This document shows, piece after piece, positions 1 to 63,530 of a DNA stretch of 64,000 bases. Every line of letters begins with the position of its first letter. Positions within the stretch are counted from its first letter, which is position 1. This stretch comes from Pecten maximus (lineage: Eukaryota). Position numbers and translations under genes: made by a program. The notes beneath the pieces are model-generated. The model ran no database searches. It saw nothing but the letters and a program-made list of their open reading frames with translations, and was not told the origin of the DNA. The DNA lies in contig NC_047015.1 of NCBI RefSeq assembly GCF_902652985.1, positions 1,674,001 to 1,738,000 of the forward strand, read 5' to 3'.

Positions 1-1205
1 ATGAACAACTGTGACTGTTAGTTCACAGAGACAGAATTCTATTGTAGCCGTGAACAACTGTGACTGTTAGTTCACGGTCAGAATTCTATTGTAACAGTGA
101 ACAACTGTGACTGTTAGTTCAGTCAGAATTCTATTGTAACTGTGAACAACTGTGACTGTTAGTTCACAGTCAGAATTCTATTGTAACCGTGAACAACTGT
201 GACTGTTAGTTCACAAAGACAGAATTCTATTGTAACCGTGAACTGTGACTGTTAGTTCACAAAGACAGAATTCTATTGTAACAGTGAACAACTGTGACTG
301 TTAGTTCACGGTCAGAATTCTATTGTAACCGTGAACAACTGTGACAGTTAGTTCACGGTCAGAATTCTATTGTAGTCATGAACAACTGTGACTGTTAGTT
401 CACAGAGTCAGAATTCTATTGTAGCCATGAACAACTGTGACTGTTAGTTCACAGTCAGAATTCTATTGTAGCTGTGAACAACTGTGACTGTTAGTTCAGT
501 CAGAATTCTATTGTAACTGTGAACAACTGTGACTGTTAGTTCACAGAGTCAGAATTATATTGTAACTGTGAACAACTGTGACTGTTAGTTCACAGAGTCA
601 GAATTCTATTGTAGCTGTGAACAACTGTGACTGTTAGTTCAGTCAGAATTCTATTTTAACCGTGAACAACTGTGACTGTTAGTTCAGTCAGAATTCTATT
701 TTAACCGTGAACAACTGTCACAGTTAGTTCACACAGTCAGAATTCTATTGTAGTCATGAACAACTGTGACTGTTAGTTCACAGTCAGAATTCTATTGTAA
801 CCGTGAACAACTGTGACTGTTAGTTCACAGTCAGAATTCTATTGTAGTCATGAACAACTGTGACTGTTAGTTCACAGTCAGAATTCTATTTTAACCGTGA
901 ACAACTGTGACAGTTAGTTCACACAGTCAGAATTCTATTGTAGTCATGAACAACTGTGACTGTTAGTTCACGGTCAGAATTCTATTGTAACCGTGAACAA
1001 CTGTGACTGTTAGTTCACAGTCAGAATTCTATTGTAGTCATGAACAACTGTGACTGTTAGTTCACAGTCAGAATTCTATTGTAACCGTGAACAACTGTGA
1101 CTATTAGTTCACGGTCAGAATTCTATTGTAACCGTGAACAACTGTGACTGTTAGTTCACAGTCAGAATTCTATTGTAACCGTGAACAACTGTGACTGTTA
1201 GTTCA
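1..1205. repeat. Minisatellite, ~47-bp unit (GTGAACAACTGTGACTGTTAGTTCACAGTCAGAATTCTATTGTAACC), WAPL intron
   Basis: About 25 tandem copies visible, continuing off the window edge. Confidence 0.97.
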
Positions 1206-1330
1206 GTGCCAGGACTCAAGCGAGGCCATCCATGAACAAATGGCAAGTGCCTGTTCACAGAGTTGGGACTCTACAGAAAAAATCCAAAAAACCTTTTACA
1301 GTACAGGTACCATGCTGTGTGTAATTATAC

Positions 1331-1467
1331 CTAAGGCAGCGTGTTGACATAGGTTGTCCCTCCTGGAGTCCAGCCAGTAGGTACTCCACGTCGTCAGAGA
1401 ACTCCTGAGTCTCCCCATACTCCTGACACTCATGAGCTTGCTTAACATTCTTTACCACAGTGTACAA
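1331..1467 (-). CDS. WAPL: WAPL coding exon 4, start of conserved WAPL domain; gene continues beyond the left window edge
   Basis: LYTVVKNVKQAHECQEYGETQEFSDDVEYLLAGLQEGQPMSTRCL(S) closely resembles human WAPL LYTVVQHVK...EFGENQEFTDDIEYLLSGL...NTRCLS; ttacag| acceptor and AG|GTATAA donor. Confidence 0.92.
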
Positions 1468-1762
1468 CTGTAACAAGAGGCTCCGACAATTACCACAAAC
1501 TTGTCACCCTGTCTGTGTATCGAAATCTTTACATATTGGGATTTCAAAAAGTAAATGTTGCTATTTTATTTTGATTTCAGAATTAAACAACACATTTATT
1601 AAATTAATGTAATAATTCACTTTTCTTATTGATTTTTCTTGAATCCTTCTTAAAAATCTAATGTTGGCAATATACCTTGACCATTTATCAAATTGTGTCT
1701 AAAAGTATCATGTCAATATAAAGTATCGTGTGTGTTGTCGACAGCTGTGTAGTCTCCCCTAC

Positions 1763-1948
1763 CTCCTTGTGCTCCTTGGAGACATGTACAGAAGTGTATG
1801 CCTCATCCCCGAGTCTGTCCGGCCAGTGTACTGCCCTGGACAGCTTAGGAGGCTCATTCGGGCGCTCGCCTGGCTCTTCCAACTTGGGTGCCATTTTAGG
1901 GATAGGGACAAGTTTTGGTGGCCCAGCTGTATCGTCCTTATTCTTGTT
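1763..1948 (-). CDS. WAPL: WAPL coding exon 3 (NKNKDDTAGPPK...HVSKEHKE)
   Basis: ttacag| acceptor and GAG|GTAGG donor; 186 nt, phase 0/0; its terminal KE joins LYTVV of the next exon as in vertebrate WAPL. Confidence 0.82.
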
Positions 1949-2295
1949 CTGTAAGTAAAATATTCTTATATAATAGAATTCAAACTGTTATAACAGGTAT
2001 CAGCTTGCTTTTATTACGGTTCATGCTATTACTTTCTGTATAATGTGGCATTATAGTTGGTAATATATGTATTTGATATTTATCATTTCAATAATGAAAA
2101 AACAAACTTATCTGATCTCGTAATGTTCTGTTATTTTTTTTCATATAAAATTGATTTATAATACCAAAATGTACCCATCAGTGTAAAAGCTACTAACTGC
2201 ATACATGTACATATATTGATATTCAATATCATTTGAAATATTTAAACAAAATGAAGGAAAATTCAAATATATGTTAAACATATTTTGTATCAATA

Positions 2296-2691
2296 AACAA
2301 GAGGCCCAGAGGGCCTGCATCGCTCACCTGGATATATCAGTGATTATGGCAAAATACTCTAATTAAAGTTATATTTCAAATATTTTCCTCCTTTTGAACT
2401 GCCTGTTCCAAAATGGCTCAAAATACAGGTGAACCAAATTCTGTCTTTCGTGGAAAAGGATTTAAAAGTTTTTTTGCTATATTTCCCCTATCAGACCCCT
2501 TTTCTCCTGCCCCATGAGTTCACCTTCCTTTGTTTATACATTTGATATCATTTGCCAATAATGCTCCACACTAAATTTCATCAAAATCCACTCAGGCCAA
2601 GTTGGGATTGAAATGAAATGTTTACAGACGACGGATGGACAGATAGATGCCGCACTATGGCCTAAACTCACCGGTCCTGGTGAGCTAAAAA
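2296..2691 (+). mobile_element. Non-autonomous Helentron-associated element (HINE/DINE-1-like) in a WAPL intron
   Basis: 5' AACAAGAGGCCCA...ATCGCTCACCTG, a subterminal GACG/GATG/GACA microsatellite, and a 3' hairpin CTCACC-GGTCCT-GGTGAGCT followed by an A tract; this is the architecture of bivalve HINEs. Confidence 0.7.
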
Positions 2692-2899
2692 TGTTAAATA
2701 TTTCATTCAGCATGCAGCTACTGATACAACAGACTATGCCACAAGCATTCACTAAGGAACAATAGTAACAATCAGCTTCATTGTAAATGTTCAATATATA
2801 TTAAACTTAGATTATCAAAGAATATTATAAAATATCTAAATAATGAAATTAAACTGTTGGTCTATAGGGAACTGTAAAAAATAACAAAATGTAAAAATA

Positions 2900-3486
2900 A
2901 ATTGTCTTCCCATTTTCTGAAAATAAACAAATTATCTTCACTTTATCTAAACATTAAGTTACCTTCCCATTTATCAAAATAAACAAATTATCTTCACTTT
3001 AAACACTAAGTTACCTTCCCATTTATCAAAAGAACAAGTTATCTTCACTTTATCTTAGCAATATGTTACCTTCCCTAAATCTAAACAACAAGTTATCTCC
3101 ACTTTATCTAAACAACAAGTTATCTCCACTTTATCTAAACAACAAGTTACCTCCACTTTATCTAAACAACAAGTTATCTTCACTTTATCTAAACAACAAG
3201 TTACCTCCACTTTATCTAAACAACAAGTTATCTCCACTTTATCTAAACAACAAGTTACCTCCACTTTATCTAAACAACAAGTTATCTCCACTTTATCTAA
3301 ACAACAAGTTATCTCCACTTTATCTAAACAACAAGTTATCTCCACTTTATCTAAACAACAAGTTATCTCCACTTTATCTAAACAACAAGTTATCTCCACT
3401 TTATCTAAACAAGTTATCTACACTTTATCTAAACAACAAGTTATCTACACTTTATCTAAACAACAAGTTATCTCCACTTTATCTAA
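2900..3486. repeat. Minisatellite, 27-bp unit (TTATCTAAACAACAAGTTATCTCCACT)
   Basis: Homogeneous at 3080-3486, degenerate to the left. Confidence 0.95.
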
Positions 3487-3913
3487 TCCGTTACCTTCCC
3501 TGTAATCAATAAGATACTTTTTATTAGGTAGGTCTACAAAGCAGGGATAAAGCAAAGACAAGTTGAATTAGATAAATCTATTTTGATAGTAATCATAAAT
3601 TGTTGACCCGATGATAAAATGCAACCATTATGCACAGGTAGAAAAAAAAAAATATATAAATAAACCAGAAAACTTGGCATTCATTATGATTGAGCCTTCA
3701 TTTAAGTTTTGCTTTAGAAACTGAATCTGTATGGGAAATTTATGACAAAAATGAAGAACTAGAGATCAAATAGTTGTTCCTGTGAGACCCTCGACAAGTC
3801 CATGAGCTATAATTTATCTAAAATTATAGGTTGAAAGATGACGGTTCTTTAAAAACTAAGCAAATAAAAAAGCAAAATAAAGAAGCACTATGCACATTTC
3901 TGATAAATGTTAC

Positions 3914-3976
3914 CCTTTCCTCTTCGTCAAAGTCTTCCTGCCAGGAGCGGACATTGTACACAGCTTTTGATGGAGA
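3914..3976 (-). CDS. WAPL: WAPL coding exon 2 (SPSKAVYNVRSWQEDFDEEER)
   Basis: tttcag| acceptor and AGG|GTAACA donor; 63 nt, phase 0/0, compatible with both neighbouring exons. Confidence 0.8.
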
Positions 3977-4124
3977 CTGAAAAAGATGATCAGTGTTAAA
4001 AGTTACATCAACAAATTGTTCACTTATAAAGGCACTAAAACATGTTTTCCTCCAAAAATACAAATTTAAAAGAAGACACATTTTAAACAATGTTTTAGTA
4101 TAATGACCAACACAAAATGTTTGT

Positions 4125-4655
4125 TTTACCCTTTTGTGACTTTGTATTACCTTTTTTACTTTGTATTACCTTTTCTGACTTTGTATTACCTTTTGTGACT
4201 TTGTATTACATTTTTTGTCTTTGTATTACCTTTTTGTGACTAAGTATTACCTTTTTCGGACTTTGTATTACCTTTTTGGGACTGTATTACCTTTTGGGAC
4301 TTAGTTTTACATTTTGTGTCTTTGTATTACATTTTGGGACTTAGTATTACATTTTGTGACTTTGTATTACCTTTTTGGGACTTTGTATTACATTTTGTGT
4401 ATTTGTATTACCTTTTGGGACTATGTATTACCTTTTTGTGACTTTGTATTACCTTTTTGGGATTAAGTATTACCTTTTTGTGACTTTGTATTACCTTTTT
4501 GGGACTAAGTATTACCTTTTGTGACTTTGTATTACCTTTTGTGTATTTGTATTACCTTTTGGGACTTTGTATTACCTTTTTGGGACTTTGCATTACCTTT
4601 TTGTGACTTTGTATTACCTTTTTCGGACTTTGTATTACCTTTTTGGGACTTTGCA
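4125..4655. repeat. Minisatellite, 20-21-bp unit (GACTTTGTATTACCTTTTTGG) spanning the WAPL exon/intron boundary
   Basis: About 25 copies; most read AAG|GTAATA on the minus strand. Confidence 0.95.
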
Positions 4656-6387
4656 ACATTTTCTTTTGCACATCTCCTTTGTTTTTGGACTTGAATATCT
4701 TCTTCTCTCTGATCCGGACTGTCTTGGCCTTGGTCAGTTTGGGAGGTTCTGCCTCGCTAGAATCAGCTGATGTTTGACTAAGGTCCTGTGTGGTTTGTGA
4801 ACTCTCTTCCTCCTCGGACTGACTGCCCTCACTCTGCTGCATGGTCTGTTCCTCACCGACTTCCATGGACTCAGCTGCTAAAGGACCTTCCTCAGACTTC
4901 TCCAAACTTTCAGCACTCTGTTGAGATTCTGCATCTTCATCAAAACCAAATGACGTGAAAGAGTCTTGCTTCTTTTTATTGGCTTTGACATTTTCTGGAG
5001 TGTTTTGTTCGAAGTCTTGGTCATTTTCCTCATTAGCTTGCTGCTCTTCTGGACTAGTACCAATTTTTTTGGAATCATTTTCTTCCTTCATTGCTGCAGA
5101 ATTTCTTGACCTGAAGAACTTATTATACCTAACAGACTTATCAGTATTGTCCCGTCCCCGTTTAACACCTTTCTTGTACTGTATTTTACCTGGGTTGTCA
5201 TTTTCATTAGTGGCAGATGACTGTTCTTCCATGCTTGGAGTAGAAGCACTATTATCTTCTGAAAACTCAAAGTTTGAGCTATCTGTGGCAGTTTCCTCTG
5301 ATTTACTATGTTCCTGAGAATCACTACCACTATTCTCATCAGTTTCAGCAATATCTCGTGAGTAAGGGTCTCTAACAGTTTTCTGATGGTGAAGTTTTGC
5401 CTTATTTTCACCAGTCGGTGGCTTAGGTGAACAGATTACAATAAGTGTTGATCCCTTACCATGTTTAATTTCACTTTTTTGAAGAACTTTGCTGTTGTTA
5501 AGCCTTCCTACTGGGTCCTCTGGACGTGGAACATAGTTAAATCTGCTGTAAACGGCTGGGTCCATGAAATGGCTTCGGAAGTTCAGAACAGTTGCCTTTG
5601 GATTATCTTCATCATCACTTTGTAACAAATGTGTTTTAGGGGAGCTGGAAACATTTGAAGAAAATGCCGCCATCTTTGTGTGCTTGCTGTAAGTTTGACG
5701 TTCACTGAACAAAAGGGGAGCTTCTTCCTCATCCTCGTCGTATTGTGAGAATGGGTCCTCTGGATTTGATGCTTCTTCGACTGCATAACTACTGGAATGT
5801 GATGCATAAGGTTCCCCTACAGCAGATCCCTCTGGCTCAAGTACCGGCATGTCATCGTCTTCATCATTAGAAACTGGTTTTGCAAATTGATCCATAGATA
5901 ATTGTTTTGAATTGTCAGCATTATGTTTTTTGGTAGCACGAGAATATGTCCTCACGGGTCTCTTGAATGTAGGTTGAGAATCAAAATCTTGTGTGTCTGG
6001 TTCAATCTTGGTTCTTTCAGATGTGTAAGAATGTGATTTCATTACCTTCATATTTGGAATAGCTGGCCGTCCCAAACCTGCTTGATGCGAGCTAGCAGCA
6101 GGTTCATCCTTGACTACTTTCTGCCTTGCAGTTTCACTTTCATCAGATCCGAATGAGAATGGATCCTCGGTCTCAACCTCTGTTTTAACTTTCTTGCATG
6201 TGGTTTGAAAAGGGTCTTCATCTCTGACCCTACTAAATTGTGTTTTACCCCATTTTGTATTAGCCGTTTTAATTGGGATATTCTGAGCCCCAGCCTTGTT
6301 GGTCACTATTTCATCAAAGGCTTTGCTTGCAGCAGTCTCCCTTCCATAAGATCGACTATAGGTTTTGACTGCGTATTTGCTTGCCAT
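4639..6387 (-). CDS. WAPL: WAPL (wings apart-like cohesin release factor), first coding exon, long disordered N-terminus
   Basis: Acceptor ttcag| at 6406/6405 and ATG at 6387 (MASKYAVKTYSRSYGR). It carries two YSR motifs (KTYSR, RTYSR) and FGF-type motifs (DPFSFGSD, TSFGFDED) typical of WAPL N-termini. First phase-0 donor AAG|GTAATA at 4639; alternative in-frame donors at 4618, 4597 and 4576. Confidence 0.88.
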
Positions 6388-6956: not shown

Positions 6957-7644
6957 TTTCAAGCAGTACTGATCACCAATTTTGAGGCCTTGTTTCGTAT
7001 TTTGTAAAGAAAGACAACTCTTCATAGATAAAGTGAATTATCTCCACTTAGACCATATTCAAAATAGTGAGATTGTAATATTGAACCTAAGCGGTCACAT
7101 GATTTATTTTACCTTTGAAAATTCAAATGAAGGTTACTTCACTTAATTTAACTGTATTTTATTCAATGCTGCTAATTAGGCACGATGTCATCAGCAACAG
7201 ATTGAGTCGCAGGGATGAGAGATATTTACAGTTTCTGCATTATTTTGTCATTTTTTCCTATTTTGTTGCCATTCCCCCTCCAACATTCACATGTAAGAAA
7301 TAGTTTTGATAATCAGTTAAATAGGTCTGATGTATCCAAGGACAACACGACAAAAAAACAACACATATAGTATTTTCTTAGGACATGGACAAATACTAAC
7401 ACTCAAATTATATTGATGTGGATATAGAGACACCAATGTCTGTGTCCGCTAATATCCTATCATATTGATGTGGATATAGAGACACCAATGTATGTGTCCA
7501 CTAATATCCTATTACAAAATATGTATATGATTCCTCTTGTACCTGTCCGTATGAGATTTTGGATTGTTTTTTACAGTGTACCTGTCCGTATAACATTTTG
7601 TATTGTTTTTACAGTGTACCTGTCCGTATAACATTTTGTATATA

Positions 7645-9212
7645 ACACAGTTGTATCACTCGTTCTACTCCACATCACAGTTGTATCACTCGTTCTACTC
7701 CACATCACAGTTGTATCACTCATTCTACTCCACATCACAGTTGTATCACTCGTTCTACTCCACATCTCAGTTGTATCACTCGTTATTCTCCACATCACAG
7801 TTGTATCACTCGTTCTACTCCACATCACAGTTGTATCACTCGTTCTACTCCACATCACAGTTGTATCACTCGTTCTACTCCACATCACAGTTGTATCACT
7901 CGTTCTACTCCACATCACAGTTGTATCACTCGTTCTACTCCACATCACAGTTGTATCACTCGTTCTACTCCACATCACAGTTGTATCACTCATTCTACTC
8001 CACACATCAGTTGTATCACTCGTTCTACTCCACATCACAGTTGTATCACTCGTTCTACTCCACATCTCAGTTGTATCACTCGTTCTACTCCACATCACAG
8101 TTGTATCACTCGTTCTACTCCACATCACAGTTGTATCACTCATTCTACTCCACACATCAGTTGTATCACTCGTTCTACTCCACATCACAGTTGTATCACT
8201 CGTTCTAATCCACATCTCAGTTGTATCACTCGTTCTTTTCCACATCACAGTTGTATCACTCATTCTACTCCACATCACAGTTGTATCACTCGTTCTACTC
8301 CACATCACAGTTGTATCACTCGTTCTTTTCCACATCACAGTTGTATCACTCGTTCTACTCCACATCTCAGTTGTATCACTCGTTCTTTTCCACATCACAG
8401 TTGTATCACTCGTTCTACTCCACATCACAGTTGTATCACTCGTTCTACTCCACACATCAGTTGTATCACTCGTTCTACTCCACATCACAGTTGTATCACT
8501 CGTTCTACTCCACACATCAGTTGTATCACTCGTTCTACTCCACATCACAGTTGTATCACTCGTTCTTTTCCACATCTCAGTTGCATCACTCGTTCTACTC
8601 CACATCACAGTTGTATCACTCGTTCTACTCCACATCACAGTTGTATCACTCGTTCTACTCCACATCACAGTTGTATCACTCGTTCTACTCCACATCACAG
8701 TTGTATCACTCGTTCTAATCCACATCTCAGTTGTATCACTCGTTCTACTCACCATCTCAGTTGTATCACTCATTCTACTCCACATCACAGTTGTATCACT
8801 CGTTATTCTCCACATCACAGTTGTATCACTCGTTCTTCTCCACATCACAGTTGTATCACTCGTTCTACTCCACATCACAGTTGTATCACTCGTTCTACTC
8901 CACATCACAGTTGTATCACTCATTTTACTCCACACATCAGTTGTATCACTCGTTCTTCTCCAAATCTCAGTTGTATCACTCGTTCTACTCCAAATCTCAG
9001 TTGTATCACTCATTTTACTCCACACATCAGTTGTATCACTCGTTCTACTCCACATATCAGTTGTATCACTCGTTCTACTCCACATATCAGTTGTATCACT
9101 CATAATACTCCACATATCAGTTGTATCACTCATAATACTCCACATATCAGTTGTATCACTCATAATACTCCACATATCAGTTGTATCACTGCTCTACTCC
9201 ACATCTCAGTTG
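7645..9212. repeat. Minisatellite, 30-bp unit (CAGTTGTATCACTCGTTCTACTCCACATCA)
   Basis: About 52 copies in exact 30-bp register. Confidence 0.98.
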
Positions 9213-9644
9213 TAAAATTCCGTCGTGGTTGTTGGTACTCTCCCGTTATTTCCTTACATCTGCCTCCGACAGCCTTAATTGAAATCACAATCCTACTAGC
9301 CAGTCTGAAGTACCCATGCTTGCTTTATTACATTGTCCATCGCCTCAAGCTAGAAAACAGAACTACATTGTGTAATTCCTAAAATGTTGTTTGTAAAACA
9401 GTATCAAAATCAAGGTACACATAACATAAATTTGACGAGTTAAACATAAATTTTTCTCGCATGTAGCTCCCTTGAGCCCCACTTTTGGAAAAAAATCTTC
9501 AACATTGCTTCTTCACGAAATCCATCTGCGGCATTTGGTGTCACTTTCATCTTCAGCCAATCAACATTCTGCCAGAGATATGTAATCCTCTTCTTATTCA
9601 TTTTGGCTGTCCAGCTGCTGTAAAATTCTGACTGATCAGTAGAT

Positions 9645-12190
9645 CATAATACTGGTCAAACATCCTAGTACTGGTCAGACATTCTAGTACTGGTCAGACA
9701 TCCTAGTACTGGTCAGACATCCTAGTACTGGTCAGACATCCCAGTACTGGTCAGTCATTCCTAGTACTGGTCAGACATCCTAGTACTGGTCAAACATCCT
9801 AATACTGGTCAGACATCCTAGCACTGGTCAGACGTCCCAGTACTGGTCAGACATCCTAGTACTGGTCAGACATCCTAGTACTGGTCAGTCATCCTAGGTA
9901 CTGGTCAGACATCCTAGGTACTGGTCAGACATCCTAGTACTGGTCAGACATCCTAGTACTGGTCAGACATCCTAGTACTGGTCAGTCATCCTAGGTACTG
10001 GTCAGACATCCTAGGTACTGGTCAAACATCCTAGGTACTGGTCAGACATCCTAGTACTAGTCAGACATCCTAGTACTGGTCAGACATCCTAGTACTGGTC
10101 AAACATCCTAATACTGGTCAGACATCCTAGTAATGGTCAGACAATCCTAGTTTTGGTCAGACATCCTAGTACTGATAAGACAATCCTAGTACTGGTCAGT
10201 CAATCCTAGTACTGGTCAGTCATCCTAGGTACTGGTCAGACATCCTAGTACTGGTCAGACATCCTAGTACTGGTCAGATATCCTAGTACTGGTCAGTCAA
10301 TTCTAGTACTGGTCAGACATCCCAGTACTGGTCAGTCAATCCTAGTACTGGTCAGACATTCTAGGTACTGGTCAGACATCCTAGTACTGGTCAGTCAATC
10401 CTAGTACTGGTCAGACATCCTAGTACTGGTCAGTCATTCCTAGTATTGGTCAGTCAATCCTAGTACTGGTCAGTCATTCCTAGTATTGGTCAGTCAATCC
10501 TAGTACTGGTCAGACATCCTAGTACTGGTCAGAAATCCTAATACTGGCCAGACATCCTAGGTACTGGTCAGACATCCTAGTACTGGTCAGTCAATCCTAG
10601 TACTGGTCAGACATTCTAGTACTGGTCAGTCAATCCTAGTACTGGTCAGACATCCTAGTATTGGTCAGATATCCTAATACTGGTCAGTCAATCCTAGTAC
10701 TGGTCAGTCATTCCTAGTATTGGTCAGTCAATCCTAGTACTGGTCAGACATCCTAGTACTGGTCAGTCAATCCTAGTACTGGTCAGTCATTCCTAGTATT
10801 GGTCAGTCAATCCTAGTACTGGTCAGACATCCTAGTACTGGTCAGAAATCCTAGTACTGGTCAAACATCCTAGCAGACATCCTAGTACTGGTCAGACATC
10901 CTAATACTGGTCAGACATCCTAGTACTGGTCAGCCATTCCTAGTACTGGTCAGTCAATCCTAGTACTGGTCAGACATCCTAGTACTGGTCAGTCAATCCT
11001 AGTACTGGTCAGTCATTCCTAGTATTGGTCAGTCAATCCTAGTACTGGTCAGACATCCTAGTACTGGTCAGTCAATCCTAGTACTGGTCAGTCATTCCTA
11101 GTATTGGTCAGTCAATCCTAGTACTGGTCAGACATCCTAATACTGGTCAGACATCCTAGTACTGGTCAGTCATTCCTAGTACTGGTCAGTCAATCCTAGT
11201 ACTCGTCAGACATCCTAGTACTGGTCAGTCAATCCTAGTACTGGTCAGATATCCTAGTACTGGTCAGACATCCTAGGTACTGGTCAGACATCCTAGTACT
11301 GGTCAGACATCCTAGGTACTGGTCAGACATCCTAGTACTGGTCAGACATCCTAGTATTGGTCAGACATCCTAGGTACTGGTCAGACATCCTAGTACTGGT
11401 CAGTCATCCTAGGTACTGGTCAGACATCCTAGGTACTGGTCAGACATCCTAGTACTGGTCAGACATCCTAGTACTGGTCAGTCAATCCTAGTACTGGTCA
11501 GACATCCTAGTACTGGTCAGTCAATCCTAGTACTGGTCAGACATCCTAGTATTGGTCAGACATCCTAGTACTGGTCAGACATCCTAGGCACTGGTCAGAC
11601 ATCCTAGTACTGGTCAGACATCCTAGTATTGGTCAGACATCCTAATACTGGTCAGACATCCTAGTACTGGTCAAACATCCTAGTACAGGTCAGACAATCC
11701 TAGTTTTGGTCAGACATCATAGCACTGGTCAGACATCCTAGTACTGGTCAGACAATCCTAGTTTTGGTCAGACATCATAGCACTGGTCAGACATCCTAGT
11801 ACTGGTCAAACATCCTAGTACTGGTCAGACATCCTAGTACTGGTCAGATATCCTAGTACTGGTCAGACATCCTAGTACTGGTCAAACATCCTAGTACTGG
11901 TCAAACATCCTAGTACTGGTCTTTCAATCCTAGTTCTGGTCAAACATCATAGCACTGGTCAGACATCCTAGTACTGGTCAAACATCCTAGTACTGGTCAG
12001 ACATCCTAGTACTGGTCAAACATCCTAGTATTGGTCAGTCAATCCTAGTTCTGGTCAAACATCCTAGTACTGGTCAAACATCCTAGTACTGGTCTTTCAA
12101 TCCTAGTACTGGTCAGACATCCCAGTACTGGTCAAACATCCTAGTACTGGTCTTTCAATCCTAGTTCTGGTCAGTGATCATAGCACTGGT
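9645..12190. repeat. Minisatellite, 19-20-bp unit (TAGTACTGGTCAGACATCC)
   Basis: Well over 100 tandem copies with GACAT/GTCAAT/GTCATT variants. Confidence 0.98.
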
Positions 12191-13834: not shown

Positions 13835-13985
13835 TCTGGCAATATGCCCATATATGACAATAAGCCCATGCCCTGCAATAAGCCCATGTCTGGCAATAAG
13901 CCTATACCTGGCAATAAACCCATGTCTGGCAATATGTCCATATAATATATTATGACAATAAGCCCATGCCTGACAATAAGCTCTC
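13835..13985. repeat. Degenerate 18-bp tandem repeat (GCAATAAGCCCATGTCTG)
   Basis: About 7 imperfect copies. Confidence 0.8.
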
Positions 13986-17100: not shown

Positions 17101-17287
17101 TACCTCTATAGACAGTGTAGCTCTGTGTGTACCTCTATAGACAGTGTAAGTCTGTGTGTGTACCTCTATAGACAGTGTAGCTGTGTGTGTACCTCTATAG
17201 ACAGTGTAGCTGTGTGTGTACCTCTATAGACAGTGTAGCTGTGTGAACCTCTATAGACAGTGTAGCTCTGTGTGTACCTCTATAGAC
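14130..17287. repeat. Minisatellite, 29-bp unit (CTCTATAGACAGTGTAGCTCTGTGTGTAC)
   Basis: About 110 copies; largest array in the window. Confidence 0.98.
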
Positions 17288-47770: not shown

Positions 47771-48154
47771 CTGTAAAGAAATACAATGTCGTTAAACAAA
47801 ACATGCAGCCCAAACCAAATAATATATTTTAGTTATTGCAGCCAAGGTGAACCCTTTTCCAACATGCGGGTCAACCGTTCTCACCTCCGGCCGGATAAAA
47901 CACACGTAACACGTGATTCTCTGGCAGTTCTTTCGATATCCGATTATGTCTGGGTTGTTTGTCCTCTGTCCTGTTAAAGTTGATACATAACCATACATAA
48001 ATATACACTTCATTACAATGATTACATCTACATTTACATTTGGTCCATCACTACAGTGATGATTATTCAACGACATAGACAGGCTGATAAAAGATAACAT
48101 TTACAGTGTACATGGATAAAGTCGCCCTTAGCTTCAAAGTCGCCCTTAGCTTCA

Positions 48155-49472: not shown

Positions 49473-49515
<43 letters not shown>

Positions 49516-51512: not shown

Positions 51513-51674
51513 TCTACTTTACACTTTAAGTATATCTAAAATATCAGCTCGACCAGCCCAAGCTTTACGAATGTCATTACCACAGGACTCTATAGATTTT
51601 TCAAATTGTTTAATGAATTGTCGACCTGTGTTGCTCGGCACCAGTCACATGTGTCAATGGAAGGGACAAGCTAT

Positions 51675-52320
51675 CATAGACTAAAAACTGAGGAATAGTC
51701 AAAATCCACCAATAGACTGAAACTCGCTGAGGAACAGTCACAGGCCACCAATAGACTGAAACTCACTGAGGAACAGTCACAGGCCACCAATAGACTGAAA
51801 CTCGCTGAGGAACAGTCACAGGCCACCAATAGACTGAAACTCACTGAGGAACAGTCACAGGCCACCAATAGACTGAAACTCGCTGAGGAACAGTCAAAAT
51901 CCACCAATAGACTGAAACTCACCGAGGAATAGTCAAGGCCACCAATAGACTGAAACTCACTGAGGAACAGTCACAGGCCACCAATAGACTGAAATTCACC
52001 GAGGAACAGTTACAATCCACCAATAGACTGAAACTCATTGAGGAACAGTCACAGGCCACCAATAGACTGAAATTCACCGAGGAATAGTCACAGACCACCA
52101 CTATACTGAAACTCACTGAGAAACAGTCACAGGCCACCAATAGACTGAAACTCACCGAGGAATAGTCACAGGCCACCAATAGACTGAAACTCACTGAGGA
52201 ACAGTTACAGGCCACCAATATACTGGTACTCGCCGAGAAATGGTCATAAGCTACTGTAGACTGAAACTCATCTAGGAATGGTCACAAGCCATCATCGACT
52301 GAAGCTTGCTGAGAAACAGT
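51675..52320. repeat. Minisatellite, 39-bp unit (CCACCAATAGACTGAAACTCACTGAGGAACAGTCACAGG)
   Basis: About 16 copies, degenerate toward the right end. Confidence 0.95.
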
Positions 52321-52408
52321 CCTTCGGACTAAATATAGCTACCAACAATTTATAGGGCCCGCCTTATCAAACAATATAGGCAAAATATTAAACGAATTCA
52401 TGTCTTAC

Positions 52409-53469: not shown

Positions 53470-54200
53470 GCTATTAGATAATTTGGTGTGAGGATATTAG
53501 ATAATTTGGTGTGAGGATATTAGATAATTTGGTGTAAGGCTATTAGATAATTTGGTACAAAGATATTATTTATTTTGGTACAAGAATATCAGTTGATTTG
53601 GTGTAAGGATATATGGATAATTAGGTACAAGGATATAAGATAATTTGGTGTAAGGATATAAGATAATTTGGTGTAAGGACATATATAATGTAAGATAATT
53701 TGGTGTAAGGATATAAGATAATTTGGTGTGAGGATATCAGACAATTTGGTACAAGGATTTAAGATAATTTGGTGTAAGGATAAAAGATAATTTGGTGTAA
53801 GGATAAAAGATAATTTAGTGTAAGGATATAAGATAATTTGTTACAAAGATATTATACATTTTGGTACAAGAATATCAGTTAATATGGTGTAAGGATATTG
53901 GATAATTAGGTACAAGGATATTAGTTAATTTGGTGTAAGGATATTAAATAATTTGGTGTAAGGATATAAGATAATTTGGTGTAAGGATATAAGATAATTT
54001 GGTGTAAGGACATAAGATAATTAGGTACAAGGATATTAGTTAATTTGGTGTAAGGATATTAAATAATTTGGTGTAAGGATATTAAATAATTTGGTGTAAG
54101 GATATAAGATAATTTGGTGTAAGGATATTAAATAATTTGGTGTAAGGATATACGATAATTTGGTATCAGGATATAAGATAATTTGGTGTGAGGATATCCG
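53470..54200. repeat. Minisatellite, 23-bp unit (GGATATAAGATAATTTGGTGTAA)
   Basis: About 30 copies. Confidence 0.95.
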
Positions 54201-55539: not shown

Positions 55540-55877
55540 GATGTTAACACCTGACCTATAACCTATCGATGTTAACACCTGACCTATAACCTATCGATGT
55601 TAACACCTGACCTATAACCTATCGATATTACCACCTGACCTATAACCTATCGATATTAACACCTGACCTATAACCTATCGATGTTAACACCTGACCTATA
55701 ACCTATCGATGTTAACACCTGACCTATAACCTATCGATATTAACACCTGACCTATAACCTATCGATATTAACACCTGACCTATAACCTATCGATGTTAAC
55801 ACCTGACCTATAACCTATCGATGTTAACACCTGACCTATAACCTATCGATGTTAACACCTGACCTATAACCTATTGA
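55540..55877. repeat. Minisatellite, 28-bp unit (GATGTTAACACCTGACCTATAACCTATC)
   Basis: About 12 copies. Confidence 0.97.
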
Positions 55878-57459
55878 TAGTTGGCGTCAGTCCTGGACAG
55901 GACAGGTTTAGTGTCCAGCGTCACTTTGACAGGAATGTATGAGTTAATTGTTGTAATTAAAGACATGTAATACAAATGTTTATGTGTGGATTAGACAACA
56001 CACAGTAATTACGGAATTATTGTCACGAAGGTAACGTGGACGTCCATCCATCACGTCGACGACACAGTGTCCTAGGGCAGGTGACCCGCTATACCAAAGC
56101 CGAGGGGCACTATTACATAAATACTAACTTCGTTAGACTGTGGCGACGTTTAGGTTCTATTCCAACAGCTGACATGTTTAATTCTAGTTATGTTCGTCCT
56201 GAAGGTTTCCTAATATGACCAATATTTACACGTTATTGCCGTATAATTATATGTCTCGTGCATGTCTCGTGCAGACCTAGTAATGTGGTAGAAATGTTTC
56301 CGGTCGACATTGTATAATTAATTACCTGAAATGATATTTTTATTAAAACATTAAGAATTTAGGACTACAGGGGACATGGTCCTTATGTTAATTAGATAGG
56401 CGTGCCATCCACTTATAATCAAACAATAACGTAATTTGGACCATTTCTGACAAAAATAACTCATATTTTAGGCCAATTATTTTAATATAATCTGTGACAC
56501 ACCATAAAGAACCGGAGAAAGACTAACTCCGAATAGACCGGGATATCAACTAGGGTTTGTAAAGGTGTGTAATATTTTCTGTTTCCTTGTGTTAAGAGAT
56601 ATATCGAATGACAAAGAATGTACAGCTGTACAAAAGACTGTTACCTCCATCTGACACACAGGACAACACCCTTCCGTTTAAAAATTCCAGGGCTTTGTGT
56701 CACCCCAAACTATTAGATAGATGGTGTTGTTAACAAAGACTTCTAAAACAGTTTAACAATAACGGACCATCTAGCTGTAGACTTATAAAGGCGCGAACGT
56801 ACAACACCATACTATTCTTTGTATTGTAAAAGTCACCCTGAAATTCACCCACTACTTTGTGATGTTTGACAATCCGTGACCGCGGACGTCATGGGAGTGT
56901 TCTGGTAGTAAATTCAATGACCCTAGCTATCATATTGTGATCTTCTTTAGAAAATAACAGTATTCAGCTTACATACCAGTTTGAGAGAGCCGATCCAACA
57001 ATACATTAACAGCGAGGCGCCAAGTTTGGCCATTTTGTATGTATAGACAAGTCGACAGCGAGGACCAATGCATTATGTATTGTGTTAATTAGTGTGATAG
57101 AGTTTTGTGATACTGGTCAGTTTGTCAACAGCTGTGTTAATTAGTGTGATACACTTTCGTGATACTGGTCAGTTTGTCAGGCCACGCGTGTCCTCGTGTG
57201 ACCTGTACATCTATGACCTGCCATTCCACTCTCCAGGTCAGGTGTCAGTTCCCGAAGTCTTTCCAGTTCGTAACACCGACTTACAGTAACAACCTGTCAC
57301 AACTATAGTACCCCATAGGTCACTGGCTGCCATCTCAGGCTGCCAACAGGGGGTTCGTAACTTGAGACATGTCAAAAGTCGGGACTATTACAACCTTTCT
57401 CGTAACGAACGTCCGTGGATCTGCTGTCAATACATACCAAGCATTTTTGAATCACACTA

Positions 57460-57965
57460 TTTACTATTCTCCTCACTAGGATGGAGTATGACTTTCATTT
57501 ATAATAAACAATAAAAATAGTATGACTTTCATTCATAATAAACAATAATTTGTTTTACTATTTCCCTCACTAGGATATAGTATGACTTTCATTCATAATA
57601 AACAATAAAAAAAATACTATTTCCCTCCCTAGAATATAGTATGACTTTCATTCATAATAAATAACAAAATATTTACTATTTCCCTCCCTAGAATATAGTA
57701 TGACTTTCATTCATAATAAACAATAAAAAAAATACTATTTCCCTCCCTAGAATATAGTATGACTTTCATTCATAATAAATAACAAAATATTTACTATTTC
57801 CCTCCCTAGAATATAGTATGACTTTCATTCATAATAAGCAATAATTTTTTTTACTATTCCCTTCACTAGGATAGAGTATTACTTTCATTCATAATAAACA
57901 ATAAATAGTGTATGACTTTCATTCATAATAAACAATAACAATATCTATTAGGATGGAGTATGACT
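57460..57965. repeat. AT-rich ~60-bp tandem repeat (TAGTATGACTTTCATTCATAATAAACAATAA...TACTATTTCCCTCCCTAGAATA)
   Basis: About 9 imperfect copies. Confidence 0.9.
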
Positions 57966-58707
57966 TATGTCGAGGCACTATTCGTAGTAAACTAAACCAT
58001 TGTCAGATTGTATCAATAATTTCATTGGGAAAATAATGTCTAAAGTTTCATTATAAACAAAATAATTATTATCATAATGGTGATGAGGAAATGCTTTACA
58101 GTTGATAATATTACATAATTGAGGCTCGGGGATTGGCGTTGTTGGGTGAAGGAGACTATAGACTGGTATTTGTTTTATAAGACAAACTAGCAGGGACACA
58201 CATCAACTCAATGGTGGTCAAGTGATGGAACACTTCGGACAATCAACTGAACAGTACAGATGTCACCAAGCTTTGTCCTCTTACCGAAGTTCTTTATAGT
58301 CTCACCACAACTACGTCCCAGGTCTGTATTGACAGAAACTTATGTCAGGATATGTAAAACATATTGTCACTGTCCGCTACTCTATCTCCTAGTCGACAGA
58401 TTTTATCTGGCTCCGACTACAAATCTCCTAGATTTCTGTCACGAGGTGACAGATTATATATCGGTATGTGTAGGACTGAAACATTTGTAATGTTTACAAA
58501 CAGATTGTGTACACTATCAGACATTACCCTGTAATATAAACTTTCGTTTAAATCAGTCAATGTACCGTGCTTGTGATTCTTTAGCACGTTAATGGGGTCA
58601 AGTTCCTCTCGAGGAAGAAAGGGTTAAATATTTATAGTAACCACAATTAATTATGTAATATTAGTATATAACCACATTCTAGACGTTAATATTATGACTC
58701 GTCAGCA

Positions 58708-59134
58708 ATTAGGTGTAATTACACGTGTGAGAGGACAGATCGATCGTAATTAGGTGTAATTACACGTGTGAGAGGACAGATCGATGGTGGTAAGTCCTGA
58801 TCGGGTCGGGGTAACTAGGTGTAATTACACGTGTGAGAGGACAGATCGATGGTGGTAAGTCCTGATCGGGTCGGGGTAATTAGGTGTAATTACAAGTGTG
58901 AGAGGACGGATCGATGGCGGTAAGTCCTGATCGGGTCGGGGTAATTAGGTGTAATTACAAGTGTGAGAGGACAGATCGATCGTAATTAGGTGTAATTACA
59001 CGTGTGAGAGGACAGATCGATGGTGGTATATCCTGATCGGGTCGGGGTAACTAGGTGTAATTACACGTGTGAGAGGACAGATCGATGGTGGTAAGTCCTG
59101 ATCGGGTCGGGGTAATTAGGTGTAATTACACGTG
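58708..59134. repeat. Two-length tandem repeat (short ~39-bp and long ~65-bp units; TAGGTGTAATTACACGTGTGAGAGGACAGATCGAT core)
   Basis: About 8 copies with or without a GGTGGTAAGTCCTGATCGGGTCGGG insert. Confidence 0.93.
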
Positions 59135-60634
59135 CAAGACGACGGTGGTGGGGTCTATTGTCACCCAGATAATCAAGGATTACACTGGTAAGGATATAAA
59201 CATAGGTCTAAATACGTAAGGGGAAATGTCAGTGTCCCAGTGTTGTTAACGGTGGTGGGAGGGGCCGGGACAATGTAATACAAAACCTCCGTGTTAATAT
59301 GGGTGATCCCATACCCGACATATTGGAAACAACCCCGTAAATATTCCACGTATGGTGGTGTGTCCTGCTACACAGGCATGTGTACTTGTCACACGTAGTT
59401 GAATACAGCTGTGTTATTTGTTTCAATTAAAAATATTTACCTGTCGAAATTAATAGATGGACTTCGTAGTGGAATTCCTAGAATGCCGAAACCTGCCTAA
59501 CTCCGGGTACACCACGGGTGGTAAATTCCAGGTGATACGGTAACATATCCAATCGAAAATAAATTATTTGATGATTAATCCTTATAAAGTGTATGTTTAT
59601 ATTCACACACACACATATCAATTGTCCCAAGTTGTACTGGCTCGTGAGACACCTCCCTACGGCCCGGTACCCTCCTGTACACGCGGGCCACACGGTATCA
59701 CTATAGACCGTACTTATGTTCGAGTTGGTGAATAATGCCCCTAGCAGGCAAATAAATTCGCTCATGTGGAACGGAGGCGGTCCATCACACTAGTGTCTCT
59801 GCCAACATTTCATACGGGCTTTAAAGAAATGTTGATATTAGTACTTGTGTTGTCTATACTCAACACCAGTGTGTGACGGAGTTATCTGTGCTGTAAGTCA
59901 AACACAAGGAAATATCCCTTTCATACATTACCCTACTCCTATAACATAAGAGGCCGCTGGTCGGCTCTTTTTCTATCGGATATTACGGCGCCTGTCAAAA
60001 GTATCTCGCCGTGTAAAACCTCTAACATTGTTGGAGTAACATTACCCGTACCTGACACTTGTCAAGAATAATGTCAAAGTCTTCAGGTGAAGCTTTTCAA
60101 AAAAGAATATACATATGTGCATTTGTTAATTGTCGTTGAGTTGAATGTAGTTGTTATGGGACAGAATACCTGGTAGAGATCGATAATTCAGTAATACACA
60201 GGAACATATGTCCTAGTACACGTGGGACCTATGTATAGTTATCTAGTGTGTTATAACAGATGTTACAATACCATCAAACGTAACATCTCTACAACATAGT
60301 TATAACATGTGGGATGGAGTCCCAGACCTGGTCCACCTTCATCAGATAGGTAGAGATTGGGCCCAAACCTTACTTTATACAGGCGTGCCTTGAAAGTGAT
60401 ATGGGGTTTGTATAGTATTGGGGTATTGTACCCCTGTCCTCCCTCCACTGTAATCCGATACCGACCTTAAACGTAGACATGAACAAAACCACGGCCTTTT
60501 TACAGGCGTTGTCAGAGTTGACGAAGTATGCGTTACTACACGCGTGAGTGACAGCGTTAGTACCGCCGATAGGTACTGTGGGGTCACCACGTGGTTACTA
60601 AACGTGAAACTAATACATTGTAATTGTGTCTAAT

Positions 60635-60848
60635 ATACCCTCAAACATCTCACAATGACGTGACTACACCCTCAAACATCACACAATGACGTGACTACAC
60701 CCTCAAACATCTCACAATGACGTGACTACACCCTCAAACATCACACAATGACGTGACTACACCCTCAAACATCACACAATGACGTGACAGCACCCTTAAA
60801 CATCACACAATGACGTGACTACACCCTCAAACATCTCACAATGACGTG
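60635..60848. repeat. 31-bp tandem repeat (ACACAATGACGTGACTACACCCTCAAACATC)
   Basis: About 7 copies, each with TGACGT. Confidence 0.94.
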
Positions 60849-61296
60849 AAACTTATTATTACATTGTCATTGTGTCGAATACACCCTCAAACATTACATT
60901 GTAATTGTGTACAACCTCAACCATCCCACAATGACGTGTGTAGAACCATGACGATATAATATGACAGGTATTTCTTTGTGTGGAAATGTCGACATTCCAG
61001 TACAGCTGGACCGAACCATGTCTCTTCCTTGTTACTGATCTCAGTCACAAGGAACACACTTAGATATAATTCGATATAGCTTCATTGTATATTATATATA
61101 TGACACCAATATGGACGGGAACACTGCGAATCTACTCACACCCTTCCTCGCACATACACACTCTCACACTCCCCCCCCCCCCCCCCCCCCTCAAAACACA
61201 CACACACACACGCTCACAGCTTCACACAAACGTACTCGCACACTCACCATCATATACACACACACACTCACAACCCCCCCTCCCCACTAACTATCG

Positions 61297-62570
61297 AATA
61301 CATTGTGATAGTACTAAATGATGTATCTAATACATTGTGATAGTACTAAATGATGTATCTAATACATTGTGATAGTACTAAATGATGTAATACATAGTGA
61401 TAGTACTAAATGATGTAATACATTATGATAGTACTAAATGATGTAATACATTGTGATAGTACTAAATGATGTAATACATAGTGATAGTACTAAATGATGT
61501 AATACATTGTGATAGTACTAAATGATGTAATACATTGTGATAGTACTAAATGATGTAATACATTGTGATAGTACTAAATGATGTAATACATTGTGATAGT
61601 ACTAAATGATGTAATACATTGTGATAGTACTAAATGATGTAATACATTGTGATAGTACTAAATGATGTAATACATAGTGATAGTACTAAATGATGTAATA
61701 CATAGTGATAGTACTAAATGATGTATCTAATGCATTGTGATAGTACTAAATGATGTAATACATAGTGATAGTACTAAATGATGTAATACATAGTGATAGT
61801 ACTAAATGATGTAATACATTAGTGATAGTACTAAATGATGTAATACATTGTGATAGTACTAAATGATGTAATACATTGTGATAGTACTAAATGATGTAAT
61901 ACATTGTGATAGTACTAAATGATGTAATACATTGTGATAGTACTAAATGATGTAATACCTAGTGATAGTACTAAGTGATGTAATACATAGTGATAATACT
62001 AAATGATGTAATACATAGTGATAATACTAAATGATGTATCTAATACATTATGATAGTACTAAATGATGTAATACATTGTGATAGTACTAAATGATGTAAT
62101 ACATAGTGATAGTACTAAATGATGTATCTAATGCATTGTGATAGTACTAAATGATGTAATACATAGTGATAGTACTAAATGATGTAATACATAGTGATAG
62201 TACTAAATGATGTAATACATTATGATAGTACTAAATGATGTAATACATTGTGATAGTACTAAATGATGTAATACATTGTGATAGTACTAAATGATGTAAT
62301 ACATTGTGATAGTACTAAATGATGTATCTAATACATAGTGATAGTACTAAATGATGTAATATATTGTGATAATACTAAATGATGTATCTAATACATTGTG
62401 ATAGTACTAAATGATGTAATACATTGTGATAGTACTAAATGATGTAATACATTGTGATAGTACTAAATGATGTAATACATTGTGATAGTACTAAATGATG
62501 TAATACATTGTGATAGTACTAAATGATGTAATACATTGTGATAGTACTAAATGATGTAATACATTGTGAT
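61297..62570. repeat. Minisatellite, 28-bp unit (AATACATTGTGATAGTACTAAATGATGT)
   Basis: About 45 copies. Confidence 0.98.
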
Positions 62571-63204
62571 TCTGTGTTAGATATACTTTATTGACGATAG
62601 CTGATGATATATAGTTCGTGAATTTCATTAATGACCAAATCACGATAAGGTGTGTGGAGGTATACACAGCGTGTCATAAGGTGACCGGGGTTACTCTGTA
62701 TCATTCCATCATTTCGTTACCGATCTGCCGTCGGTGAAGGCGAGAAATCCTTTTAGCATTCTTTAAAGCTTCAATATTATGTCATCACATCACCCTGCTA
62801 CAGGAGTGGACAAAAATATCTAAAATCTATCTGACGTGTCACCTGTGCGGTTTGGAGAAATGATCTAAACAAATGATTGAATTATCTGTAGGGAGTAAGA
62901 CATCGAGATAGATTAACAGGATGTCTAGATATAGGCTCGGCAGTTTATGTAGAGCGACATATCTCTAGAAATTATTACGATAGACCAAGTACATTAAGAT
63001 TTCATACATTTCTAAATTACGTAAATCAAAATTAAATTATTTCATTGGCTCAATTTATTATTGATACAAATCAGATAATAAATTTACAATACTGATGTCC
63101 AGCATATTTTACCATGTATCATTGTTATCCATTTGTTAATGTTCATATTCTCTGTACTGTACTGTTTACGAGAATAAACAATGGTTATTGTCATTGACTC
63201 ATTA

Positions 63205-63530
63205 AGAGAGATTGATAGGGAGTCCAGAAAGACTCATAATTTTATGTAGAGAGCGAAACATCGAGAGAGAGATTGACAGGAAGTTCGAAAAGACTCAGCA
63301 TTTTATGTAGAGAGCGAGACATCGAGAGAGATTGGTAGATGTCTAGAAGGACTCATAATTTTATGTAGAGAGAGAGAGACATCGAGAGAGATTGGTAGAT
63401 GTCTAGAAGGACTCATAATTTTATGTAGAGAGAGAGAGACATCGAGAGAGATTGGTAGATGTCTAGAAGGACTCATAATTTTATGTAGAGAGAGAGACAT
63501 CGAGAGAGATGGACAGGAAGTTCAAAAATA
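63205..63530. repeat. ~60-bp tandem repeat (TTATGTAGAGAGAGAGACATCGAGAGAGATTGGTAGATGTCTAGAAGGACTCATAATT)
   Basis: About 5 copies, with diverged copies near 62880-62980. Confidence 0.9.

Follow-up and report, generated by a model that had tools for sequence, protein, structure and literature searches.

Dense minisatellites in a gene-containing window of Pecten maximus: a probable origin by local duplication followed by composition-biased expansion

The window analysed here is a stretch of 64,000 nucleotides from the scallop Pecten maximus (NCBI RefSeq assembly GCF_902652985.1, contig NC_047015.1, positions 1,674,001 to 1,738,000 of the forward strand), and its DNA represents one haplotype. It contains three minus-strand genes, WAPL, an erlin-1-like gene and LOC117321971, among tandem repeats that fill close to half of the sequence. 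Our data suggest that most of these repeats were born where they now lie, by duplication of short pieces of local DNA, and we found that the long arrays are a biased subset of these duplications, a point absent from the initial annotation of the window.

The gene models are well supported. The spliced WAPL model is identical to XP_033732446.1 at 711/711 residues, and its large exon alone has 100% identity over 578 residues to this Pecten maximus protein and 81% to three other scallops; the gene runs past the left end of the window. Single exons of erlin and LOC117321971 are also 100% identical to P. maximus proteins, and all 17 introns of the three spliced models (17/17) are GT-AG.

We measured the extent of the repeats with Tandem Repeats Finder (TRF). 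The cover was 28,835 bp (45.1% of the window) at weights 2/7/7 and 29,419 bp (46.0%) at weights 2/5/7, while merged regions of at least 200 bp (n=30) accounted for 27,567 bp (43.1%). Four order-4 Markov simulations of the 34,581 non-repeat bases produced one TRF row altogether. We curated 55 TRF rows, one per array, excluding higher-order periods of the same array, two G runs, one AC run and two low-complexity A-rich rows. At least 5 copies of a unit of at least 18 bp were present in 29/55 rows, and 21/55 had fewer than 5 copies of a unit of at least 16 bp. The 29 arrays have units of 18-63 bp, the longest measures 3,156 bp, and the match is at least 90% in 17 of them. These figures agree with the initial annotation, which had described about 30 minisatellites with units of 18-63 bp, up to about 3 kb long and many very homogeneous, over about 40-45% of the DNA. 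Copy numbers span 2 to 132. Genes, arrays and duplications are given below in window positions, with the strand where one applies.

1331-6387, minus strand: WAPL, first four coding exons (6387-4639, 3976-3914, 1948-1763, 1467-1331), GT-AG introns
19364-30960, minus strand: erlin-1-like, 11 coding exons, 331/331 residues identical to P0145
40230-52509, minus strand: LOC117321971, uncharacterised single-pass membrane-type protein, 5 coding exons, 455/455 residues identical to P0146
2-1205: 47-bp array within a WAPL intron, 25.5 copies, truncated by the edge of the window
2895-3486: 52-bp duplication and derived 27-bp array (about 21 copies)
4120-4653, minus strand: 20/21-bp array, about 26 copies, WAPL exon end and donor
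7410-7512: 52-bp two-copy duplication
7538-7641: 38/39-bp duplication, 2.7 copies
7646-9214: 30-bp array, 52 copies
9631-12191: 19-bp array, 132 copies, showing duplicated blocks of 4 and 5 units
13833-13981: 18-bp degenerate array
14132-17287: 29-bp array, 110 copies, the longest
17346-17939: 33-37-bp array with an internal CA run
18154-19166: 40-bp array, 25 copies
19421-20794: 22-bp array, 63 copies, last erlin intron
20804-21606: 3.6 copies of a 60-bp unit and 11 copies of a related 52-bp unit
21872-21976: 51-bp two-copy duplication
22479-24278: 56-bp array, 32 copies
25058-25875: 47-bp array with 21-bp sub-units, taking up 818/934 bp of an erlin intron
26022-26130, minus strand: 44-bp duplication, 2.5 copies, including the erlin splice acceptor at 26023
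29343-29445: 50-bp two-copy duplication
29444-29507, minus strand: diverged 32-bp duplication (family D14), erlin exon end and donor at 29487
29765-29877: 29-bp duplication, 3.9 copies
33629-34368: 57-bp array, 13 copies
36015-36913: 60/61-bp array, 15 copies, TGTCAAT on both sides
37989-38065: 38-bp two-copy duplication
38679-40197: 50-bp array, 31 copies
40424-41552: 32-bp array, interrupted in register by a 590-bp insertion (40541-41130)
40541-41130: non-autonomous element within the 32-bp array, with 18-nt sub-terminal inverted repeats, a 69-nt-arm hairpin at one end and no target duplication
41635-42366: 26-bp array, 27 copies, kin of the 32-bp unit, about 10 bp from a donor
43679-43704, minus strand: 12-bp in-frame coding duplication (VHGG twice) in LOC117321971
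45055-45164: 37-bp triplication
45445-46108: 40/46-bp array, 15 copies
46390-47046: 40-bp array, 16 copies
48118-48154: 18-bp two-copy duplication
48567-48635: 32-bp two-copy duplication
48652-49225: 63-bp array, 9 copies
50516-51515: 37-bp array, 27 copies
51687-52321: 39-bp array, 16 copies, one end decayed
53472-54197: 23-bp array, 32 copies
55540-55878: 28-bp array, 12 copies
57081-57179: 52-bp duplication with 5 extra bases at the junction
57517-57938: 59/34-bp compound array
58707-59145: 65/41-bp compound array
60637-60849: 31-bp array, 7 copies, with degenerate copies as far as 60938
61297-62570: 28-bp array, 44.5 copies
63205-63510: 60-bp array, 5 copies, and one further, degenerate copy at 62882-62957
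63646-63730: 16-bp triplication and related 23-bp duplication

The arrays are biological and not assembly errors. In the 23 arrays of at least 9 copies we counted 311 distinct substitutions and 119 indels, and 173/311 substitutions were common to at least two copies. Transitions were found at 13/28 CpG positions as compared with 81/338 other C/G positions. Random long-read error is not expected to give such a pattern. The head-to-tail units and array sizes are those of single-locus minisatellites (variable number tandem repeats, whose units measure about 10-100 bp and whose arrays run from 0.1 to several kb), and the interspersed variant repeats common to several copies are likewise as in this class. 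In an independent P. maximus assembly the share of tandem repeats is 35.85% genome-wide and 47.18% within introns (PMC10225492, Table S13), and in Yesso scallop arrays of 9-11 kb were amplified by PCR at their predicted length, according to the accessible text of PMC4856933. Within the window TRF covers 2.7% of exons, 49.1% of introns and 49.6% of the DNA elsewhere, a class that may include unannotated introns of untranslated regions (UTRs); the spacer between WAPL and erlin reaches 74%. The arrays are thus excluded from exons. Since the published intron cover of 47.18% is close to ours, the window is typical of P. maximus. The abundance of tandem repeats in this species is already in print, which the initial annotation did not mention. 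The preprint bioRxiv 10.1101/2020.09.15.298695 reports that 39-85% of mollusc hemizygous deletions are tandem-flagged.

We compared 1,225 pairs of units. Neighbours account for five of the nine highest scores, the first four among them, and form four groups: 40424/41131/41635 (32 and 26 bp), 20804/21045 (60 and 52 bp), 2906/2926 (52 and 27 bp) and 63646/63679 (16 and 23 bp). New units have budded from old arrays. A few distant pairs score 27-29, above all 400 shuffles, and are read as shared composition plus multiple testing. When the units were searched against the window by BLASTN, clear matches lay only beside the unit's own array, with two weak distant matches (E 0.001-0.002). The masked window yielded no dispersed repeat and two short local matches only, and the 57 array flanks compared had nothing in common beyond neighbours and CA runs, with no conserved left or right boxes. 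The initial annotation had stated that nearly every array has its own unit and that none is dispersed; the second part stands within the window, whereas the first must allow for the four neighbouring groups.

At three loci the ancestry of the unit is visible. The WAPL unit (4120-4653) consists of the last 15 nt of the large coding exon, encoding QSPKK, plus the splice donor at 4638, and the array holds 24 donor-like sites. The SPKK end is kept in 7/8 orthologues shown (four scallops, two oysters and the pearl oyster; the eighth aligned elsewhere), and because of this conservation the unit sequence must be far older than the array. The erlin acceptor (26023) lies inside the unit of 26022-26130, and its copies fall at 26067 and 26111. 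The 12-mer that is duplicated in the coding sequence at 43679 occurs once in Ylistrum balloti and once in P0147. It is at the protein level that the single-copy ancestral state is seen, for this 12-mer and for the WAPL exon end. Because the units at WAPL, erlin and the coding 12-mer contain conserved gene sequence, the evidence for local birth is direct there. Our data therefore support the proposal of the initial annotation that the units were born locally and do not represent the spread of a satellite library, directly for these three loci and by within-window evidence for the rest. The 32-bp array picks up in register after its 590-bp insertion, which places the only transposon-like element that touches an array inside it and not around it.

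Further copies of gene sequence were seen nearby. On the minus strand at 4555-4638, the annotated WAPL donor is followed by three copies, at 4617, 4596 and 4575, that keep an open frame; each adds seven residues (VIQSPKK-like), and later copies shift the frame or reach a stop. These extra donors are used by neither of the two annotated P. maximus isoforms. The amplified donor thus offers three in-frame alternatives of seven residues each with an SP-K/H motif, a possible route to new isoforms. A second coding 12-bp repeat of LOC117321971 (DPRL-like; 47630-47675, minus strand) is one unit shorter in P0147 than it is in P. maximus and Ylistrum. Upstream of the real erlin acceptor, 29950-30405 carries two decayed copies of the acceptor and exon start and is probably an old eroded array.

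We then turned to the junctions. Both ends of 50 loci were aligned to the unit, and 34 loci with clean ends were kept (12 short, 22 long); truncated and compound loci, loci internal to MITEs (miniature transposable elements with inverted repeats) and low-complexity loci were dropped. Among duplications of 2-4 copies the overlap lay between -5 and +5 in 10/12, against 4.0 expected for random ends (p 3e-4), and these young junctions fall between the simulated cases of 0-nt and 3-nt microhomology. They are near-blunt. An overlap of -3 or lower in 3/12, where simulation at the same arm lengths gives 1-5%, suggests junction filler or decay. A terminal overlap of at least 6 nt was found in 11/22 long arrays and in 1/12 short ones (Fisher p 0.024), and in the long arrays such overlaps outnumber those in the opposite direction by 11 to 2 (p 0.022); the overlap is +1 or less in 7/22. 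Microhomology arms of at least 3 bp occur in 4/12 short and 15/22 long loci as compared with about 10% of simulated blunt junctions, and the long-array ends have perhaps been reshaped.

Outside the arrays we found no sign of repeated flanks. In 20 arrays the outer-flank match averaged 3.30 nt for an array's own pair and 3.46 nt for cross pairs, and a match of at least 5 nt occurred in 2/20 arrays versus 12% of cross pairs. Insertion of an element with a target-site duplication was considered and rejected on these chance-level repeats. The initial annotation had pointed to short direct repeats at array edges such as TGTCAAT; this heptamer does flank the 36015 array at both ends but differs from the internal junction, and as a general signature flanking repeats fail, being at chance level over the 20 arrays while the young duplications are near-blunt. 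Degenerate end copies, also part of that description, exist at several arrays, but full monomers are barely more diverged at the termini than inside (0.063 vs 0.054).

The composition of the units separates long arrays from short duplications. From 50 units of at least 16 bp we formed a set of 26 long (at least 5 copies) and 16 short units, leaving out two MITE-internal, one low-complexity, one split twin and four derived neighbours; segments for the null came from 25,843 bases that are neither repeat, exon nor transposable element (TE). The short units (n=16) resemble background, with an AA/TT frequency of 0.188 vs 0.206-0.211. In the long units (n=26) it falls to 0.114, compared with 0.206 in background, 0.176 in GC-matched segments (z -5.3) and 0.186 in shuffled units (z -7.0). 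Long and short units differ from each other (Mann-Whitney p 0.007), and copy number declines with AA/TT content (rho -0.40, p 0.009). The deficit is found on both strands; outside coding introns it reaches z -2.6 and -2.5, and inside them it is weak (z -0.8 and -1.1). Long units are also depleted in GC and CG steps, with CpG at 0.013 vs 0.030, and enriched in AG, TA and AC. Owing to this step bias the units stack slightly weaker than their GC content predicts (z 4.8, a 2% effect). GTAC is present in 11/26 long units against 3.3-3.5 expected, which 0/150 null maxima equalled in a family-wise test; CAGGT, spotted by eye, is in 6/26 and is nominal only (p 0.035, GC-matched).

We asked where the bias enters. 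Array flanks are not depleted (AA/TT 0.196 vs 0.207), and a null drawn within 3 kb gives p 0.0003, so regional composition was rejected as its source. Within arrays, variants that remove AA/TT do not spread (17/42 shared vs 156/269), and there is no drift of within-array variants to lower AA/TT or higher GC. This suggests that the bias is already in the seed. GC-biased conversion was discarded: long units are GC-richer (0.395 vs 0.352), yet variants from A/T to G/C are shared in 44% of cases and the reverse in 59%. Hairpins and palindromes show no excess in the units over background segments (z -0.3 to +1.2 over four measures). A shared core motif of the human minisatellite type was likewise rejected, as the best degenerate 6-mer (log10 p -4.5) was equalled or beaten by 9/25 null sets. 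As to growth, block duplications of 3-5 marked monomers were observed 4 times vs 0.34 in shuffled order, and there were 10 two-unit blocks, a count that has no control. Nucleosome-sized expansion steps were not retained, the best lags being spread over 28-564 bp and mostly non-significant.

The reading we favor, at a probability of roughly 0.6, is that duplication in place is blind to sequence and is followed by stepwise expansion that is filtered by sequence, yielding ordinary single-locus minisatellites at extreme density. In a first step a 16-65-bp piece of local sequence would be copied head-to-tail, nearly sequence-blind and with 0-5 nt of junction homology; the in-place copying is visible at the three loci above, and we infer it for the remainder. 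The route may be that staggered breaks are filled in and end-joined, or that an Okazaki flap realigns, with the enzymes putative. In a second step a minority of doublets would grow by repeated in-register re-duplication, for which blocks of up to 5 units are seen, and growth would favor seeds that are AA/TT-poor and have a longer terminal overlap. The pattern of this second step is present in the arrays, and its cause may be slippage, flap realignment or unequal sister exchange. New units would bud by internal deletion, and selection would purge the products from coding exons while tolerating them elsewhere, splice sites included.

Several points weigh against this reading. The data come from one 64-kb window with 42 units, and many features were tried after inspection of the data. 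Unit uniqueness is seen at the scale of this window only, and units could recur elsewhere in the genome. The 34/50 arrays behind the edge statistics were picked by hand as clean, a rank test over all overlap values of long vs short loci gives p 0.08, and long-array edges may have been reshaped after birth so that the overlap may differ from the original microhomology. Order structure within arrays is weak, with a significant best lag in 4/23. Selection or decay acting on arrays with A/T runs could also produce the same composition bias.

This last possibility can be stated as an alternative in which expansion is sequence-blind and arrays with A/T runs decay fast or are selected away, as decoy pyrimidine tracts or polyadenylation signals. 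The homogeneity of long arrays does tend downward with AA/TT (rho -0.36, p 0.07), and the WAPL array with its A-runs has a match of only 84%. We consider this explanation unlikely, given that the depletion is strand-symmetric and strongest outside annotated coding introns, that GC and CG steps are depleted and AG, TA and AC enriched as well, and that AA/TT-removing variants fail to spread. An equally unlikely explanation is the classical one of Haber-Louis or Rad27 type, in which all arrays start by slippage between direct repeats of 5-10 bp and the near-blunt doublets are a separate, dead-end class. It would account for the terminal overlaps of at least 6 nt in 11/22 long arrays, and PMC13167724 describes microhomology-mediated tandem duplication (MTD) as dominant among the classes of duplication across life and as increased when Rad27/FEN1 is lost. 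The 7/22 long arrays with an overlap of +1 or less, the chance-level outer flanks, the rarity of overlaps of at least 6 nt among young duplications (1/12) and the AA/TT bias, which it leaves unexplained, all argue against it.

The other alternatives are more improbable. Birth might be coupled to transcription or splicing, with seeding at exon borders: 10/23 intronic seeds lie within 60 bp of a splice site as compared with 4.9 under a pooled null (p 0.015), and a splice site lies within three of the duplications. A within-intron null puts the expectation at 7.4 (p 0.11; coordinates are off by up to 3 nt), and cover is equal outside coding introns (49.6% vs 49.1%) and highest, at 74%, in the WAPL-erlin spacer, which makes this coupling quite improbable. 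Hardly more credit, and if anything slightly less, goes to the idea that the arrays repeat inside Helentron/CvA-type elements or belong to dispersed satellite families, on the pattern of Crassostrea gigas, where 9/11 major satellite DNAs are mostly Helitron-associated (PMC8268682, as far as its text was accessible). The window does contain a CvA-like element and an insertion that we take to be Helentron-like, and some units could have copies elsewhere in the genome. But units with conserved splice junctions cannot be TE-derived, which refutes the idea for the WAPL and erlin loci; the 57 flanks share no boxes, the masked window has no dispersed repeat, the presumed Helentron-like element sits within an array rather than around it, and most oyster monomers measure 160-180 bp. 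Masking P. maximus with a repeat library, moreover, gives 27.0% repeats and 0.99% simple repeats vs 35.85% by TRF in the second assembly. An assembly or sequencing artefact is barely conceivable. The first P. maximus assembly was built on PacBio Sequel 1 long reads (PMC7191990, in part), and exact copy numbers could be off; against an artefact stand the excess of substitutions over indels (311 vs 119), the 173 that are shared, the CpG pattern of transitions, the 47.18% intronic cover of the second assembly and the PCR-confirmed length of the Yesso scallop arrays.

Unit lengths gave a further lead. The 42 independent units cluster at a 10.4-bp period (Rayleigh p 0.004), and both halves of the window agree in phase (8.4 and 8.1). 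A 46-unit set gives phase 8.2 with p about 0.01 at the fixed period and 0.07-0.11 when periods 6-16 are scanned; alternative period calls give p 0.025, addition of six minor units p 0.10, and the 17 short duplications alone p 0.38. The six Yesso scallop periods in Table 1 of PMC4856933 lend no support (mean cosine 0.00). The pattern is only a lead because it was spotted by eye ahead of testing. It would fit a bolder and rather doubtful picture in which a chromatin-guided amplifier rebuilt a third of the Pecten genome, with unit lengths of about 10.4n minus 2 and with only AA/TT-poor, often GTAC-containing units running away to copy numbers in the tens or hundreds. Lengths of about 19, 29, 39, 50 and 60 would then come from filled-in opposite-strand nicks on nucleosomal DNA. 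The nick geometry of the nucleosome would underlie lengths of 10.4n minus 2 bp.

Arrays account for 43% of the 18 introns that lie wholly inside the window (24,869 bp), and a further 13.5% comes from the CvA-like element together with four transposon-like inserts delimited by hand. The initial annotation had proposed a lineage-specific trait that drives intron and genome size. The lineage part is supported, with tandem repeats at 35.85% in P. maximus versus 11-22% in five other scallops according to Table S13 of PMC10225492. The size part finds no support: the intron total of 331.8 Mb lies within the scallop range of 263-372 Mb given in the same paper, and over six scallop species the correlation of genome size with TEs (rho 0.89, p 0.02) is closer than that with tandem repeats (rho 0.66, p 0.16). 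These totals may be biased where assemblies differ in sequencing technology. Slow loss of arrays would look the same as the high birth rate that the initial annotation had proposed.

The transposon-like inserts carry class labels that, apart from CvA, we assign provisionally. In a WAPL intron 2298-2690 is a CvA/pearl-like element with ends set by eye; the CvA primer published in PMC5874043, available in part, matches 2308-2328 with one mismatch, about 570 bp from the nearest array. A 1.27-kb insert at 26668-27946 with 22-nt terminal inverted repeats occupies most of an erlin intron and carries a perfect 32-nt palindrome at 27885-27916. Two MITE-like inserts (28375-29270 and 43183-43390) have inverted ends and short internal repeats, and a short inverted duplication cluster with 24-26-nt arms lies at 30762-30842 in the first erlin coding intron. 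Homopolymer runs include 32 G at 40386-40417, adjoining an array, 39 G at 49473-49511 and about 20 C at 61170-61190.

Outside the three gene models, seven open reading frames had no Pfam match at cut-off, and the window had no Rfam match for structured RNAs. Exon-like stretches with splice signals on the minus strand (9241-9620, 12430-12605 and 38310-38485) are possibly UTR or non-coding exons and gave no Pfam or Rfam match. Syndecan/EphA2_TM scores of LOC117321971 were weak and below the Pfam cut-off. Background CpG is about 0.01 over 1-31,100 (WAPL, spacer and erlin) and 0.026-0.033 further right; the low left side would fit methylated housekeeping gene bodies.

If about 45 loci per 64 kb are typical, the 380 Mb of tandem repeats would mean hundreds of thousands of independent birth-and-growth events. 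The sister species P. jacobaeus could polarise them, and with so many loci the contrast between doublets and long arrays is therefore testable at a scale that few genomes offer. PMC13167724 leaves open what makes tandem repeats arise at particular loci and what makes some doublets go on to expand. P. maximus has been called repeat-poor (27%, vs 36% by TRF), perhaps because library masking cannot see single-locus arrays.

Our results can be set beside several known systems. What we describe is a known kind of repeat at an unusual scale. It is typical of P. maximus, and a supplementary table had given its amount before: repeat density in the same species is alike (47.18% of introns vs 49.1% here; PMC10225492, Table S13). 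Minisatellites form about 96% of the tandem repeats of Yesso scallop, where 6/12 clones map to single chromosome pairs without C0t-1 blocking (PMC4856933; PMC5700196, each in part). As far as their accessible parts go, these three scallop papers give totals or markers and do not treat origin, junctions, unit composition or unit length. Our literature search, mostly outside subscription journals and some supplements, found no paper treating how scallop minisatellites originate, their junctions or the composition of their units, and local ancestry together with the doublet-versus-array bias appear undescribed in the literature searched. The satellites of C. gigas Helitrons/Helentrons and CvA/pearl elements resemble ours as short arrays scattered in gene-containing bivalve DNA; they form families spread over many loci, with conserved boxes at their flanks and monomers of about 156-180 bp (PMC8268682, PMC5874043), unlike the 18-63-bp units, unique flanks and host-gene ancestry of the scallop arrays. 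Fill-in at staggered breaks, by CST/Pol alpha-primase with non-homologous end joining or by polymerase theta-mediated end joining, resembles the first step in producing duplications of tens of bases with little homology and occasional extra bases; it covers the doublet only and, in PMC8355091, was demonstrated in mouse and human cells at pairs of Cas9 nicks rather than in molluscs.

Haber and Louis reportedly proposed in 1998, as later descriptions have it, a model of minisatellite origin. The likeness of our arrays to this model and to MTD is that a single-copy segment duplicates in place and then expands, with coding regions depleted (PMC13167724, in part). Section 10 of that paper relates longer microhomology to further expansion, in agreement with our long-array overlaps. 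In MTD, as far as this source was available, expansion beyond 2 copies is rare, with 131/9,149 yeast loci reaching 3, whereas 26/42 independent loci here have at least 5 copies and some more than 100. Unlike in either, most young doublets of the scallop window have near-blunt junctions, and the expanded class is distinguished by a dinucleotide bias.

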